42,237 nucleotides of DNA from an archaeon (lineage in GTDB: Archaea > Iainarchaeota > Iainarchaeia > Iainarchaeales > JAAZKV01): assembly GCA_036170245.1 (NCBI GenBank), contig JAVHOV010000002.1:1-42237 (forward strand), given 5' to 3'. A program made the translations under genes and the position numbers. Below, in pieces: positions 9,400 to 16,252 of this stretch (position 1 is the stretch's first letter; each line of letters begins with the position of its first letter). Below the pieces are notes generated by a model. That model was not told the origin of the DNA. It did not search any database and saw only the letters and a program-made list of their open reading frames with translations.

Positions 9400-9400
9400 G

Positions 9401-9473
9401 TGCCACTGGGCGGACTCGCACCGCCGACCTCCTGATTATGAGTCAGGCGATCTAACTGCTGATCTACAGTGGC
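9401..9473 (-). tRNA. tRNA-Met(CAT), probably elongator; no intron
   Basis: GCCACTG/CAGTGGC acceptor, GATC/GATC D stem, CCTGA-CT-CAT-AA-TCAGG anticodon arm, GGCGG-TGCGAGT-CCGCC T arm. Lacks initiator features (A1:U72, three G:C pairs). Ile2 is not fully excluded. Confidence 0.85.
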
Positions 9474-9474
9474 T

Positions 9475-9548
9475 GAGCCTTGTTAAGGTTCGCGAAAGAA
9501 TTTATCATTTGCGTTAGCAAATGATAGAAAACTAACTCAAACCGGCTC
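9475..9548. repeat. Tandem-hairpin element in the tRNA-Met 5' leader
   Basis: GAGCCTT-gtt-AAGGTTC (9475-9491) and TATCATTTGC-gtta-GCAAATGATA (9503-9526). The first 23 nt are 19/23 identical to the start of the tRNA-Glu intron. Confidence 0.6.
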
Positions 9549-11017: not shown

Positions 11018-12100
11018 TTAGTCTTTTCTCCAATTAACTTTTACATCATCAGTACGCTGTTTTGGAAATATACTAGATTTATTCAAGGATGTTTTATAAC
11101 CATTAGAATACATCAACAAACCGAGCCAACCTATTTGGGCGCCATTGTCAACCATTACAGAATTAGGAGGAACAAATAAAGTTGCATTTCTCTCTTCACA
11201 CATTTTTTTCACCATTTGCTGTAATGCAAGAGAACAACCAACTCCACCACCCAAAACTACTTCGCTTTTTTCAGTGTGAGCCAGAGCCCTTTCAGTTACT
11301 TCAGTTAGCATTGCAAATGCATTATGAAGTGCAGAGTAAACCAAATCTTCTTGTTTTATTTTTCCTGCTTTGACTTGAGGAATTTTATTTGTTGCAGCAG
11401 TAAGTAATCCTGAGAAAGCAAGATCCATTCCCTTTACAGTATAAGGGAGGTCAATTAACTCTCGTGGTGAAGCCGTTGCTTCACTACGCCCCGCAAAAGC
11501 AGATGCTTTTGCAAGGGTTCCCTTAAAATACATTTTATCAAGCGCAGGCCCAGCAGGAAATCCTAAATCAAGCTCTCTACCAAAAGTGTCCAAGAAATTG
11601 CCAATTCCTGTATCAAGTGTTTCTCCAAATACCCTATAATAAGAATTTTCGTAGCAAATGATTTGTGTATTTGCTCCGCTCGCATAAAGCATTATTGGAT
11701 CAGTTGCATTACACAATTTTCTTCCGATTTCAATGTGCGCTACGCAATGGTTTACCCCAATTAAGGGAACATTTGCCTTGAGTGCAACTTGTCTTGCAGT
11801 AACCGCCCCAACTCTTAAAGCATTTCCTATCCCAGGACCTTGGGAAAAACTGACTAAATCGATTTCACTCAAATCTACTTTAGCTTTTTTGAGTGCAGAT
11901 TTAATAACAATTGGAGAACAAGTGTAGTGATGTTCAGCTAGTTCTCGGGGAATCATTCCTCCAGTTGTAGTAGTATAAGAATCTTTTTCATTTGAAAGAA
12001 TTTTACACTTTGACTTTTTGTAATCCTTCTTATCAATATCACTCTCAACTATACTTGCACCAAATGTGTGCGCAGTTGATTCAATTCCAAGCGTTATCAT
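11018..12100 (-). CDS. kae1: tRNA N6-threonylcarbamoyladenosine synthase Kae1 (KEOPS), with an ~18-aa in-frame insertion
   Basis: LGIESTAHT, SQGPG, VNHCVAHIEIG, SGANTQ, GETLD, LPYTVKGMD, GGV, DNGAQI, RTDDV motifs. Not fused to Bud32. Confidence 0.96.
   Translation of the reverse strand: MITLGIESTAHTFGASIVESDIDKKDYKKSKCKILSNEKDSYTTTTGGMIPRELAEHHYTCSPIVIKSALKKAKVDLSEIDLVSFSQGPGIGNALRVGAVTARQVALKANVPLIGVNHCVAHIEIGRKLCNATDPIMLYASGANTQIICYENSYYRVFGETLDTGIGNFLDTFGRELDLGFPAGPALDKMYFKGTLAKASAFAGRSEATASPRELIDLPYTVKGMDLAFSGLLTAATNKIPQVKAGKIKQEDLVYSALHNAFAMLTEVTERALAHTEKSEVVLGGGVGCSLALQQMVKKMCEERNATLFVPPNSVMVDNGAQIGWLGLLMYSNGYKTSLNKSSIFPKQRTDDVKVNWRKD
11463..11524. repeat. Palindromic element inserted in-frame in kae1
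   Basis: CGTGGTGAAGC-cgtt-GCTTCACTACG (11463-11488), GCAAAAGCA-ga-TGCTTTTGC (11493-11512) and AAGGG-tt-CCCTT (11513-11524). Coincides with the extra peptide TLAKASAFAGRSEATASP. Confidence 0.8.
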
Positions 12101-12115
12101 TTTTATTCACCAAAA

Positions 12116-12652
12116 TCATCCAACCAAAAGATATAATGCAATTGCAAACAAATTATAGAACAAGTGCCCTAAATAATTCTGAACTATTGATTTGTTCTGT
12201 TTGAACCAGTAAGCAAGTAATAGCCCTAATGCAAATGCTCCAATCATTTCTGCGATTGAATAATACCCAACGTGTGCCAAACCAAAAAGTAGTGAAGAAG
12301 GAATTATTCCTACGTGGTTTACCAAAAATGCTCGAAAGAAGAATTCTTCAAAGAAAACCAAAACTGCCATTACTACAACATACAATAAAGCGTTCTCCAT
12401 GTTGAGTGCAATTACTTCGCTTACTTTATCCAAATCATTTAACCCTAACAAAGTCAGAATAAATGAAAGCAAAACAAATGAAATCATTAATGCTAAAAAT
12501 AATTTTGCTGAACCGATTAGTTCTTTTTTTGCATCAAAAGAAAATGGAACTAATTCATTTTGTATTTTTTTCCAATTAAGTTTTTTGATAATCCTCAGCC
12601 AAAAGAGAGGGAATATTATCATGAAAAAGAATAGCACAATATCTTCAATCAT
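12116..12652 (-). CDS. CPBP (CAAX prenyl protease/Abi) family intramembrane metalloprotease
   Basis: EEFFFRAF, FGLAH and HLFYN motifs; multiple TM helices. Confidence 0.9.
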   Translation of the reverse strand: MIEDIVLFFFMIIFPLFWLRIIKKLNWKKIQNELVPFSFDAKKELIGSAKLFLALMISFVLLSFILTLLGLNDLDKVSEVIALNMENALLYVVVMAVLVFFEEFFFRAFLVNHVGIIPSSLLFGLAHVGYYSIAEMIGAFALGLLLAYWFKQNKSIVQNYLGHLFYNLFAIALYLLVG

Positions 12653-12749
12653 AATAACAAGATAAATTACTTCTTTAGTTTAAATAACTTATGAAAAATT
12701 AAAAACTGATTAAAATTAGATTAAAAAAATAGAATAAAGAAAAAGAACT

Positions 12750-12923
12750 TTAGTTCTTCTTCTCCATATACCCGCATTTTCCGCATGAATAACGGTCTTT
12801 GTGTGATGCCATGAATACTCCAGGACCGCACTTAGGGCAGAATTTAGTCTTTCTCTTTAATACTCCGCTTGAAACATCATATTGCTCTGATTTCAATTGT
12901 TTTTCTTTTTCTTTTTCAGCCAT
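12750..12923 (-). CDS. rps27ae: 30S ribosomal protein S27ae (eS31); not in the supplied ORF track (57 aa)
   Basis: Manual translation [57 protein letters not shown]. Follows S24e; GGTGA SD upstream. Confidence 0.95.
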
Positions 12924-12941
12924 TTTTATTCACCCTTAAAT

Positions 12942-13268
12942 TTACTTCTTAAAATTTGCAGGAGGAGCGTTTTCGCTAGACTCTGCTTTCTTCTCTTTTC
13001 CAAAGTTTCTTGTTATAACAAATTCAGCTTCTGTTTTTCTTAAATCTGCTTCGCTAGCATAAGTTCTGAAATGTATTAATGCGTGAGGAGAACCGAACTT
13101 TGTTTCAACTTTTTGTATTGCTATTGTTTCAACAGGAGTGTTTAGTACTGCTGATAGTTTTGCTCTTATATCAACTTTTGAAGGAATTGTTTTTTCCTCA
13201 ATTTCAGCAACTGCTTCTGTTCTGTTTAATAGTTCGTTCTTTTTCTTACTTAATATTTTCAAATCCAT
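12942..13268 (-). CDS. rps24e: 30S ribosomal protein S24e
   Basis: 'KKNELLNRTE...TIPSKVDIRAKL...TKFG' and conserved gene order. Confidence 0.92.
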   Translation of the reverse strand: MDLKILSKKKNELLNRTEAVAEIEEKTIPSKVDIRAKLSAVLNTPVETIAIQKVETKFGSPHALIHFRTYASEADLRKTEAEFVITRNFGKEKKAESSENAPPANFKK

Positions 13269-13288
13269 TCTCATTCACCTGCTAAATT

Positions 13289-13486
13289 TTACCTGCTTAA
13301 TCTCAAAGCAAACTTTCCTCTTCTTGTGATACCCATTTTCTTTGCTATATCAGATTGTTCGGGGTTCATTATTATTACATATCCTCTCCAGAATGTTGTG
13401 AATGTTTTTTCATTACAGTTAGGGCAAACGTCCCCTTCTTCTACAACGTATCTGCAATTTCTACAAGCTTTTTCTTTTAGCACCAT
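13289..13486 (-). CDS. spt4: Transcription elongation factor Spt4 (RpoE'')
   Basis: ACRNC..CPNC..WRGYVIIMNPEQSDIAKKMGI...GKFAL. Confidence 0.95.
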   Translation of the reverse strand: MVLKEKACRNCRYVVEEGDVCPNCNEKTFTTFWRGYVIIMNPEQSDIAKKMGITRRGKFALRLSR

Positions 13487-13508
13487 TTTACAAACACCCT
13501 CAAGAAAT

Positions 13509-14126
13509 TTAATCTTTACTTTCCCCTTTATTCATTTCTTTTTTAGCCATTTTTTCTTCTTTAGTCTTAGTCTTTGCTTTTGGCCCTTTTTCGTCAATTC
13601 TTCCCCAGTCAGCTTTTCCTAAGAAAGGTTGTCTCATAGTTAATCCAATCTTTGAAGATGAAGTATCTCCTCTTAGAGAGATTGTAACTATTCTAGCTAA
13701 CACATTATCTTCAGGAACTAATTTCTTATCAGTTTTCTTTCCCAAGAATCCTGGTAACTTTGAATCGTAATTAATATAGTCATCCATGATTTGACTTACG
13801 TGGATTAATCCTTCAATTGGCCCAATTCTAACAAATGCACCAAATTCAGTTACTTCAGTTATTGTTCCTCTTACAACTTCTTGTACATTTGGTTTATAGG
13901 TAAGCATTTCTATTTCTGTTTCGTAGTAAGCTGAACCGTCTCCTGGGATAACGTGTCCTACTCCAACTTTTCCAATTCCAGTAACTGCAATTATTACTCC
14001 GTATTCGTCTCCAATTCTTCCTTCGTAATCTTCTCTGCAAATATCTAAGAGTGAGTCCTTAATGTTAGTTCCCAACTTTCTTGGCTGTACTCTTACTTTA
14101 TCCATTATTTTTGTTTTGTAAAACAT
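13509..14126 (-). CDS. rpoE1: DNA-directed RNA polymerase subunit E' (Rpo7)
   Basis: PGDGSAY, FGAFVRIGPIEGLIHVSQIMDD, KIGLTMRQPFLGK. Confidence 0.96.
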   Translation of the reverse strand: MFYKTKIMDKVRVQPRKLGTNIKDSLLDICREDYEGRIGDEYGVIIAVTGIGKVGVGHVIPGDGSAYYETEIEMLTYKPNVQEVVRGTITEVTEFGAFVRIGPIEGLIHVSQIMDDYINYDSKLPGFLGKKTDKKLVPEDNVLARIVTISLRGDTSSSKIGLTMRQPFLGKADWGRIDEKGPKAKTKTKEEKMAKKEMNKGESKD

Positions 14127-14254
14127 TTGCTCACCTTCAAAATAAATAAAATTAATTTTTCCCGAGCCTTTACACTAAGGCAGGATTAATTAAATACTTC
14201 AACGCCAAGTTTAAAAACCATTCCCTTTTGAAGAAAAAAAACTTTATTCTTCTT

Positions 14255-14647
14255 CTATTCCTCAAGTATATCGCTTGTATCAATATATGTTAAACTGCGT
14301 ATAAACACTGTTTTTCCGCCTTTTTGATGCACTCTTCTGCGTAGTTCCTTATCGTTTGTCGCAATAACATACTCTTTGCTTAACTTAAGTATCTCGTCAT
14401 CCACAGAGCTCATTAAACTTTCAATTACCCTTACATTATTGAGTTCTAATATTTTGTTTACAAGTCCAACTTCTTTGTTTATCTTTTTGTCACTTTTGCC
14501 TAAACCCTGAAGTTCAATTAAAACACGGGAAAGAGTATAAAATTCAACAGGAAGTTTTCCTTTTAATTGTTCAAGTCCGAAAATTTTGTTTCTCACCATA
14601 GTGAGCAGAAAATTAGTATCTAAAAGAATTTTTATTTTCTCAGCCAA
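14255..14647 (-). CDS. PIN-domain nuclease (Fcf1/Utp24-like)
   Basis: LLDTNFL...EL...VDD...IATNDKELRRR; conserved position between aIF2gamma and rpoE'. Confidence 0.88.
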   Translation of the reverse strand: MAEKIKILLDTNFLLTMVRNKIFGLEQLKGKLPVEFYTLSRVLIELQGLGKSDKKINKEVGLVNKILELNNVRVIESLMSSVDDEILKLSKEYVIATNDKELRRRVHQKGGKTVFIRSLTYIDTSDILEE

Positions 14648-14693
14648 ATAATCACTCTTTTTTCAAATAAAATTTAATTATTTTTTGAAAAAA

Positions 14694-16220
14694 TTAAATT
14701 ATTTCTCCGTATGCAACAAGTCTCCACTGACCGTTGATGTTTTTACTTAGAGCAACTTTTTCTCCTTTCTCTGAAATTGATTCATTTTTCAAATTAATAG
14801 TAATTGTTTTGGAATCAACTTTTGTAACAAATCCAACTGTAGTATTTGTTCCAATTGTTACAACTAGTGGTTCAGTTACTTTTATTATTGTTTTTTGTGA
14901 CAAAATATCTGCAGCTTCATTACGCTTAGCAATAACATTTGTTTTTGCTTGGTCTTTTGTATTTTGCTCAAGCATTCTTTCAAACATTGTATAATTTAAT
15001 TTTAATTCTTTTACTGGAGAAGGAATAGTTCCCTGTTTTGCAGCAATTTGTCCTCGCAGTTGATCGTTTTGTGCAACACTTGGGTCAAGGTCAGTTCCAA
15101 GAGCAATTAACCCACCAGGGAATGCTTCAGTTACTAATCCATTTGAAGTAGAAATACTCATTACTTTGAATAGCGTTTTTTCTTTTAATCCAGGATTCAA
15201 TTCAATCGTGTCCCCGATTTTTACTGCACCTTGCGTTATACTTCCGCCAATTACCGCACCCTTCAAATCTTTTGGAAGAGTTCCTGGCTTATTAATATCA
15301 AAACTTCTTGCAATAAACATCTTCAAGGGTTTTGTTGTATCAAAGTGAGGAGTTGGAATGTGTGTTTCTATTGCTTCAATCAGCGAATCAATATTTACAT
15401 CAAATGTTGCAGCTGTTGGAATTATTGGTGCATCAGTGTATCCGTATGAATCCAAAAAGTTTCGTATTGCTTTGTAATTAACCATTGCTTGTTCTTTTGA
15501 AATTAAATCAATTTTGTTTTGTGCTACTACTACTTTATTTACGCCGGCAAATTTTAGTGCCATTAAGTGTTCAATAGTTCGTGGTTGAGGGCATGGCTCG
15601 TTTGCAGCAATTACTAGAACCGCTCCGTTCATTAATGCAGCTCCGCTTAACATTGTAGTCATTAGTGTTTCGTGCCCAGGCGCGTCAACAAAACTTACAT
15701 TTCTCTTTGAAATTATTTCTGCTTTTTGTCCTTGGTATTCAGATTTATTAGAATAAACTATTCCGTTTGCTGTTTTTAATTTATAAAAAGTTACATCAGC
15801 ATAACCTAGTCTAATTGAAATTCCTCTCTTCATTTCTTCACTATGGGTATCACACCATTTTCCGCTAATTGCACGAGTAAGAGAAGTTTTACCATGATCA
15901 ACGTGTCCAATCATTCCGATATTTACTTCAGATTGGTGGATTAAATTTTCTTTTGGAGTTTTTGCTTCATGAGTAGTTTCTTTTTTATGCTCTTTATGTT
16001 CATGTTCATGAACAGCTTCTTTTACTTCCTGAACCACTTCTTTTTTGTGCACATGGCTTTCCACATGAACTTCTTTTGCTTCTGGGGAAGAAGAAGGCAA
16101 AATTTCTTTTGCCTCTTTCAATTTTTTAGCCCTTGGCTTTTTTTCTTTTAGTGGAATTGCTTTAGTGGCTACTTTATCATCAACGTTAATTTCTTCCGTT
16201 GCTTTTTTCTTAGCCACCAT
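14694..16220 (-). CDS. eif2g: Translation initiation factor aIF2 gamma subunit, with long charged N-terminal extension and internal insertion
   Basis: QSEVNIGMIGHVDHGKT, RGISIRLGYAD, DAPGHE, QNKID, RSFDINKPG, WRLVAYG. Confidence 0.96.
   Translation of the reverse strand: MVAKKKATEEINVDDKVATKAIPLKEKKPRAKKLKEAKEILPSSSPEAKEVHVESHVHKKEVVQEVKEAVHEHEHKEHKKETTHEAKTPKENLIHQSEVNIGMIGHVDHGKTSLTRAISGKWCDTHSEEMKRGISIRLGYADVTFYKLKTANGIVYSNKSEYQGQKAEIISKRNVSFVDAPGHETLMTTMLSGAALMNGAVLVIAANEPCPQPRTIEHLMALKFAGVNKVVVAQNKIDLISKEQAMVNYKAIRNFLDSYGYTDAPIIPTAATFDVNIDSLIEAIETHIPTPHFDTTKPLKMFIARSFDINKPGTLPKDLKGAVIGGSITQGAVKIGDTIELNPGLKEKTLFKVMSISTSNGLVTEAFPGGLIALGTDLDPSVAQNDQLRGQIAAKQGTIPSPVKELKLNYTMFERMLEQNTKDQAKTNVIAKRNEAADILSQKTIIKVTEPLVVTIGTNTTVGFVTKVDSKTITINLKNESISEKGEKVALSKNINGQWRLVAYGEII
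14901..14966. repeat. Palindromic element inserted in-frame in aIF2gamma (66 bp = 22 codons)
   Basis: Bounded by inverted CAAAATA (14901-14907) and TATTTTG (14960-14966). Core 14914-14948 is 26/35 identical to the kae1 element and keeps the GCAA..CA/TG..TTGC hairpin. Confidence 0.7.
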
Positions 16221-16252
16221 CAAAATCCACCTTTTTACAACACTAAATTATT

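Follow-up and report, generated by a model that had tools for sequence, protein, structure and literature searches.

Two unrelated essential genes in a stretch of Iainarchaeota (DPANN) DNA, kae1 and aIF2-gamma, contain 35-nt segments that resemble each other and are read in the same frame. Do these have a common origin, and if so, what sort of sequence can enter genes of this kind without destroying them? The DNA studied (“the window” below) is the 42,237 nt of contig C2:1-42237, part of an 866,866-base assembly in 43 contigs, labelled G000; the genome is 86% complete, with 33% GC. A first-pass annotation of the window took the segments to be copies of a non-autonomous palindromic family, similar to the repetitive extragenic palindromes (REPs) of bacteria and the Rickettsia palindromic elements (RPEs), that adds loops to core proteins. 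This proposal is supported by further copies, by empty sites in related genomes, and by covariation in the hairpin stems, and the window probably does hold two members of a short non-autonomous palindromic repeat family comparable to these bacterial elements. Both window copies are spanned, with zero differences, by four independent assemblies, probably from the source samples, and no empty-site variant was found at either in four DNA runs, which confirms the assembly.

The kae1 copy and its partner in gatE

Kae1, the tRNA threonylcarbamoyl-adenosine transferase, is encoded at 11018..12100 on the minus strand (360 aa; Pfam TsaD, E 2e-66), and aIF2-gamma at 14694..16223, also on the minus strand (509 aa; Pfam GTP_EFTU, GTP_EFTU_D2, and eIF2_C). 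Both are open reading frames (ORFs) whose first-pass identifications were confirmed by Pfam. Direct comparison of positions 11478-11512 and 14914-14948 reproduces the ungapped, same-strand identity of 26/35 originally described, and the segments do share a frame on the coding (minus) strand, with peptides AKASAFAGRSEA and AKTNVIAKRNEA. As evidence for anything above chance, the match itself did not hold up. In an all-against-all comparison, the window contains 107 distinct same-strand pairs of 35-mers with at least 26 identities, and ten dinucleotide-preserving shuffles of it contain 35 ± 6. Since pairs this good are common in the window and in its shuffles, the bare match was rejected as evidence.

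The convincing partner of the kae1 copy is on another contig, in gatE (C7:29347), rather than in aIF2-gamma. It matches the kae1 35-mer at 31 of 35 positions, compared to a maximum of 23 in shuffled genomes, and the identity runs past the original 35 bases to include a second hairpin that those coordinates had clipped. The host is a 643-aa protein with Pfam domains GatB_N, GAD, and GatB_Yqey. Where Kae1 reads KG-TL-AKASAFAGRSEATASPR, GatE reads KG-NP-AKAGAFAGRSEATASPR, with a 17-residue peptide and both hairpins in common. The gatE insert is present in one of 30 genomes, G000 alone; in G008, the closest relative (90% amino acid identity), the site is empty, with KFVKG running directly into HTVFG. 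A different insertion of ~17 aa (..KPQFTAAKAIWGDKKDK..) is found in the gatE of G014 (locus L104), ~30 residues upstream of the site used in G000.

In kae1 the two-hairpin element is intact, at 11461..11523 (minus strand; 77.5 bits with the covariance model R1, described below). Hairpin A, GCAAAAGC/GCTTTTGC, is closed by CCC/GGG, and hairpin B, CGTAGTGAAGC/GCTTCACCACG, includes a conserved A.C mismatch. As DNA, the copy has a predicted folding energy of -18.2 kcal/mol (z-score -4.97), and none of 200 shuffles folds as well. Protein and DNA alignments with 25 relatives place the insert at 11465..11518 (minus strand), 54 nt or 18 codons (TLAKASAFAGRSEATASP, Kae1 residues 195-212), with boundaries uncertain by 2-3 nt. 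The same 18-aa insert is found in G008, G010, G011, and G014, and a 36-aa version with four hairpins in G015. The site is empty (..YFxG-xx-LIxLPY..) in nine genomes of the genus and in all 11 of the other-family genomes examined; in G003, the contigs stop at it. A Kae1 tree built without the insert columns, and without the G016 row (the extracted stretch is frameshifted), requires four changes between filled and empty states. Branches with good support make two of these the minimum; for example, G010 (filled) and G009 (empty) are sisters (98/94), as are G012 (empty) and the pair G000 plus G008 (filled; 93/92). The kae1 site has thus been gained, lost, or exchanged more than once.

At the protein level, the Kae1 insert is predicted, for Kae1 alone, to be a disordered loop at a place where the fold tolerates it. 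In an AlphaFold model made with a 23-orthologue alignment (mean predicted local distance difference test score, or pLDDT, 91.4; predicted template modeling score 0.89), residues 196-211, within the insert, are the sole segment with pLDDT below 50. The closest solved structure, P. abyssi Kae1 (2ivn, E 9e-94), has an 18-residue gap at the same place. Elsewhere in the alignment with P. abyssi Kae1, residues 22-32 (window 12006-12038) form an 11-residue, Lys-rich insert (IDKKDYKKSKC), which has no match to the element model.

A family of paired hairpins

A first nhmmer profile, made from the kae1 and gatE copies, drew weaker non-coding look-alikes in the 16S rRNA/tRNA-Ala spacer, at two sites 3' of the 23S rRNA, at one 3' of tRNA-Lys(CTT), and at one near tRNA-Cys. 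R1 was trained on six aligned copies, with that of aIF2-gamma left out, and applied with a genome cut-off of E < 0.01; opposite-strand echoes of the palindromes were set aside in counting places in G000. The further genomic copies anticipated in the first-pass annotation are there: 18 distinct places, 13 of them intergenic and five in frame inside genes (kae1, gatE, aIF2-gamma, uvrC, and a hisG-like gene). Weak matches within TruD (E 0.09) and the tail of GrpE (E 0.17) were excluded from this count. The kae1 copy has no match to any Rfam family at E <= 1, and the four loci containing five other copies gave only rRNA, tRNA, and RNase P at the Rfam gathering score.

The basic module is 54-63 nt in length and consists of two hairpins. 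The core of the first is GCAAAAnn/nnTTTTGC. The second often opens with CGTAG or CGTCG, its CGT pairing with ACG, and keeps a mismatch, either A.C (CGTAG..CCACG) or C.A (CGTCG..CAACG), which is a G.T or T.G when read on the opposite strand. Some copies have one of these openings (or TGTCG or CCTCG), and others have none. Modules are also found as inverted pairs and in arrays of three or four hairpins.

Covarying stems, part of the original proposal, were found in two data sets. RNAalifold predicts two hairpins from the six copies, with compensatory changes in six of 19 pairs. For 73 matches from G000 and its relatives, standard pairing is found in 93.9% of cells, compared to 39-50% with the partner displaced by 1-3 columns; both sides have changed in 267 cells, compared to 5-40 in the displaced controls; and the covariation score is 0.504, compared to 0.04-0.07. 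This alignment was fitted to the model and includes opposite-strand echoes, so the figures lean toward structure, but the gap to the controls is still large. As DNA, the kae1, gatE, uvrC, and hisG-like copies have fold z-scores of -4.0 to -6.4 relative to shuffles. Inside genes, stem changes in the coding copies of G015, G031, and G010 keep pairing and alter the peptide; in the kae1 stem GCAAAACCA/TGGTTTTGC of G015, for example, A..A becomes P..G with pairing intact. That pairing is kept at the cost of peptide changes points to a nucleic-acid constraint.

Empty sites, which the first-pass annotation had suggested looking for, are present in close orthologues of all five host genes. The uvrC copy is antisense, within the GIY-YIG domain, and its 19-aa insert is missing from G008 (91% identity), G015, and G018. 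That of the hisG-like gene is an array of three hairpins, the last nearly identical to a copy 3' of the 23S rRNA; the 34-aa insert is missing from G009, G015, and G018. Judging by these alignments, the gatE, uvrC, and hisG-like insertions appear to be gains private to G000 among the genomes compared. In G031, a large ATPase-like protein has a copy in its acidic N-terminal region, in the same frame as in kae1.

Among same-genus relatives, 17 of 18 have R1 matches at E <= 1e-4, with between 1 and 38 per genome (echoes counted); in a sample of 151 genomes from the order, 47 have matches at E <= 1e-6, as do 23 of the 65 genera. G016 has inverted pairs, as well as a composite repeat of 115-196 nt that contains the module and occurs at unrelated places. 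This larger repeat was considered as a possible autonomous element, and rejected on account of its length. Closely related species differ by gains and losses of copies. Beside tRNA-Met, G008 (locus L127, G008:C19 1269-1593) has ~260 extra nt with two inverted element copies, where G000 has ~60 nt next to the tRNA gene at 9400-9473, an intergenic empty site (window 9400-9540).

The single rRNA operon of G000 (C26:16063-19998) has three element copies, all pointing along transcription: one is between the 16S and tRNA-Ala, in the spacer, and the other two lie 3' of the 23S, within 250 nt of it. Downstream of tRNA-Lys(CTT) (C6:12420-12720, minus strand; locus L002 ~1920-2220) is a ~115-nt insert containing one element copy, followed by a repeat of the last ~17 nt of the tRNA and ~25 nt of downstream flank. 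The arrangement resembles a long target duplication, or else a scar left by integration into the 3' end of the tRNA.

Overall, 11 of the 13 intergenic copies are directly downstream of a gene, rRNA, or tRNA whose orientation they share; one of the remaining two is antisense between two genes and one is between divergent genes (the flanking protein genes are crude longest-ORF calls). Could the family be primarily a host-useful RNA module, a 3'-end hairpin that stabilizes or terminates transcripts or guides their processing, with the in-gene copies as by-products or acting in mRNA on pausing or stability? The strong sense bias, which includes one copy after the 16S, two after the 23S, and one after tRNA-Lys, fits such a role equally well; compensatory changes maintain the hairpins even within genes; and no transposase is tied to the family. 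A module of this kind is harder to reconcile with the inverted pair that distinguishes G008 from G000 at tRNA-Met, with the copies private to G000 in three genes, one of them (uvrC) antisense, with the range of 0 to 38 matches per genome in a single genus, and with arrays and composite repeats of ~170 nt at unrelated places in G016. We consider it quite unlikely as the main explanation.

The aIF2-gamma copy and the reading frame

The copy in aIF2-gamma (14894..14959, minus strand) scores 25.4 bits with R1, with E 0.003 for the genome. It retains the left arm and a weakened hairpin A, and has lost the 3' strand of hairpin B. An alignment of 30 aIF2-gamma genes places a 57-nt, 19-codon insert (DQAKTNVIAKRNEAADILS) at 14898..14954 (minus strand). 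Inserts of 15-19 aa are found in five of the 19 genomes of the genus (G000, G012, G008, G003, and G011), and are missing from the remaining 14, as well as from each of the 11 genomes examined in other families. The window segments in both genes are therefore insertions relative to orthologues, as the first-pass annotation supposed in noting that the proteins exceed their homologues at these places, and orthologues from more distant archaea do not all carry them: for both genes, 11 of 11 from other families are empty.

The double change from G:C to A:T that had been pointed out between the kae1 and aIF2-gamma hairpins is present, but the aIF2-gamma hairpin also has a T.T mismatch, and its second hairpin is gone. 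The suggestion that structure is conserved thus stands for the family as a whole, and not for this copy today. In the filled aIF2-gamma sites of relatives, the DNA keeps mere scraps of the hairpins, with the frame intact at 15-19 aa. On its sequence, we read the aIF2-gamma copy as an old, decayed member of the family.

Its membership could instead be illusory: kae1 and gatE alone would share a real element, and the aIF2-gamma segment would be an unrelated lineage-specific loop that matches at 26/35 by chance. The abundance of such pairs in the window and its shuffles is in keeping with this, as is the near-absence of hairpins in the relatives' versions. As single-stranded DNA, the G000 copy folds no better than its shuffles (z-score -0.38; 64 of 200 fold as well), and with structure gone it is assigned to the family by profile scores only. 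These scores come, however, from two models built without the copy: R1, and a sequence profile of 53 other copies, with which it scores 18.8 bits (E 0.0011), above the best match in any of 20 dinucleotide-shuffled genomes (8.5-16.1 bits). The segment coincides exactly with a genus-restricted insertion, agrees with the copies in kae1 and gatE in orientation and codon phase, and retains GACCAAGCAAAA, a left-arm motif found in intergenic copies. With these in view, a chance match is unlikely.

At its N-terminus, the same protein is extended by ~95 residues, with Lys, Glu, and His abundant among them (residues 1-98, window 15930-16223). Matches to aIF2-gamma from other families begin at query residues 47-103, so that most of the extension is missing there.

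All of the in-gene inserts are stop-free, and their lengths are divisible by three, as the first-pass annotation expected: 54, 54, 57, 57, and 102 nt in G000, and 108 nt in the kae1 of G015. The 54-nt insert is open in four of its six frames. One frame is common to the kae1, gatE, aIF2-gamma, and G031 ATPase copies; a single fixed frame or orientation for in-gene copies was nevertheless rejected, given that the last hairpin of the hisG-like copy is in another frame and the uvrC copy is antisense. A shared nucleotide target motif was also considered. The kae1, gatE, and aIF2-gamma empty sites are A-rich (GGA/AAA-like, the slash marking the site), and the antisense uvrC site lacks shared oriented flanks; because A-rich lysine codons are everywhere at 33% GC, no target motif is claimed.

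Intron-like behavior, in which the in-gene copies would be cut from the mRNA (the archaeal splicing endonuclease being one candidate enzyme) and the proteins would lack the extra loop, might be suspected from the strong structure of the copies and from their presence in an rRNA spacer and beside tRNAs, where substrates of that enzyme occur. Archaeal bulge-helix-bulge introns have, at their junctions, a 4-bp helix between two 3-nt bulges; the folds predicted here are flush hairpins with a 1x1 mismatch, not two 3-nt bulges four pairs apart. Considering also that all six inserts are stop-free multiples of three, and that decayed aIF2-gamma copies without hairpins stay in frame in five species, splicing seems extremely improbable.

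In the repeat-family reading, most copies survive in intergenic DNA just 3' of genes and co-oriented with them, where they are probably transcribed as 3' hairpins. A copy within a gene would survive only given a length that is a multiple of three, a stop-free frame, and a tolerant, surface-loop site; the host protein would then gain an extra, mostly disordered loop of 15-36 residues, which may well be neutral.

Mobilization and comparison with known systems

The copies presumably move as DNA. Several observations weigh against the repeat-family reading, and belong beside the lost structure of the aIF2-gamma copy, the sense bias of the intergenic copies, and the model-fitted, echo-containing alignment behind the covariation counts. 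Neither a Y1_Tnp nor a TnpB zinc-ribbon domain was found in G000 (86% complete); no R1 matches lie within four Y1 loci of relatives; 29 of the 47 element-positive genomes of the order lack a Y1 gene; no terminal inverted repeat or target duplication was recognized in comparing filled with empty kae1, gatE, and uvrC sites; and translation of the in-gene copies is something we infer rather than observe.

The first-pass annotation had suggested two signs of mobility to look for, a target duplication, which is not among the features recognized at these three sites, and a HUH/Y1 transposase flanked by the hairpins. Y1 genes are present in G010, G011, and G016, and in 43 of the 151 genomes of the order. 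Element and Y1 gene occur together in 18 genomes, compared to 13.4 expected, a weak co-occurrence in a tally that assumes the same genome draw in both tables and treats related, hence non-independent, genomes alike. A single adjacency was found: in G157:C52 (locus L222 1008-1317), 46 nt separate an element copy from a truncated Y1 fragment (67 aa, Pfam positions 1-48). A Y1 transposase was rejected as partner: it is absent in G000, the four Y1 genes of relatives neither adjoin nor are flanked by the element, and the co-occurrence is weak.

G000 does have an IS5-like DDE transposase, which, with its 3' end, is repeated at several contig ends (C6:1-626, C9:1-264, C19:14132-14367, C36:1-225, C31:31265-31398, and C30:8577-8693). 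It contains an “ADKGYDS” motif, which we take to be typical of the IS5 family. This element probably breaks the G000 assembly; it appears unrelated to the hairpin family, its ends being unlike the hairpins by eye.

Among described repeats, RPEs (Ogata et al. 2000, 2002) are presented as the extreme case of in-frame palindromic insertion in the passages of PMC10969869 that treat them. As described there, they resemble the present family in being repeated palindromes found between genes and in frame in unrelated housekeeping genes, in being read through as extra peptide at fold-compatible sites, and in their high intragenic share (5/18 in G000). The RPE module in that description is ~150 bp (PMC10969869), compared to 54-63 nt here, and this family further differs in its archaeal host, its GCAAAA-type hairpins, and its use of several frames and both orientations. 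The likeness is claimed at the level of kind and not of sequence.

The resemblance to REPs extends to details of the hairpins. Di Nocera et al. 2013 (PMC3733652), in their sections on the REP super-families tagged with GTAG and CGTC, identify RPE-4 and RPE-6 as CGTC REPs; the phyla named there for these REPs are all bacterial (PMC3733652). REPs in this account are mostly downstream of genes, intragenic units are often in uvr and rec genes, and CGTC REPs are without a dedicated transposase (PMC3733652), as is the present family. On the same description, the two have in common stem-loops of 7-11 bp with loops of 3-6 nt, tens of copies located mostly downstream of genes, inverted dimers and clusters, and some intragenic units, including one in a uvr gene. 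Many second hairpins here open with CGTAG or CGTCG, which between them contain the two REP tag tetranucleotides; however, the REP tag as there defined lies outside the stem, whereas in this family its CGT is paired, with an ACG further downstream, and each unit combines two unlike hairpins in a fixed arrangement. No REPtron, that is, a gene for a REP-associated tyrosine transposase (RAYT) flanked by repeats, was found for this family in G000 or at the four Y1 loci of relatives.

Palindromic mini-elements that derive from IS200/IS605 insertion sequences and are mobilized by a Y1 (HUH) transposase excise seamlessly. The seamless-looking empty sites and the patchy kae1 pattern at one codon boundary would fit excision of this type, and these elements and the present family also share hairpin ends, a lack of terminal inverted repeats, and no target duplication seen. 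They differ in that the family has no Y1 or TnpB in G000, no Y1 adjacency in relatives beyond the fragment described above, weak co-occurrence, and no conserved target tetranucleotide that could be found. [quoted passage not shown] In the Forterrea genome paper (PMC5905446), no word starts with “palindrom” or “hairpin,” and full-text literature searches, with subscription journals and supplements outside their scope, gave no description of in-frame palindromic elements in archaeal genes.

The evidence supports an archaeal counterpart of REP and RPE elements, with recent in-frame insertions in essential genes. A stronger version is conceivable, though rather unlikely: a currently active archaeal hairpin-element system that enters codon boundaries of essential genes and leaves seamlessly without a resident HUH/Y1 or TnpB, by means of an unrecognized enzyme or of host replication or repair acting on the hairpins, and whose stems are under selection at the nucleic-acid level even inside coding sequence. 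Such selection, if real, would imply a function in mRNA or DNA beyond simple tolerance.

Palindromic “selfish DNA” inserted in frame in housekeeping genes is well known as a curiosity of Rickettsia and a handful of other bacteria. Here the same phenomenon would be found in a reduced DPANN genome, affecting the t6A (threonylcarbamoyl-adenosine) enzyme Kae1, initiation factor 2 gamma, the tRNA-dependent amidotransferase GatE, UvrC, and a HisG-like protein. Core proteins of DPANN archaea often have loops specific to a lineage, and insertion of this kind offers a possible way for them to arise. The filled and empty sites of sister species make up a natural series in which to follow the birth and decay of new loops. 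In practical terms, such repeats break assemblies and, in marker-gene phylogenies, can make proteins look more divergent than they are. More generally, REP-like repeats, along with the puzzle of how they are mobilized while lacking a dedicated transposase, would be extended to the third domain.

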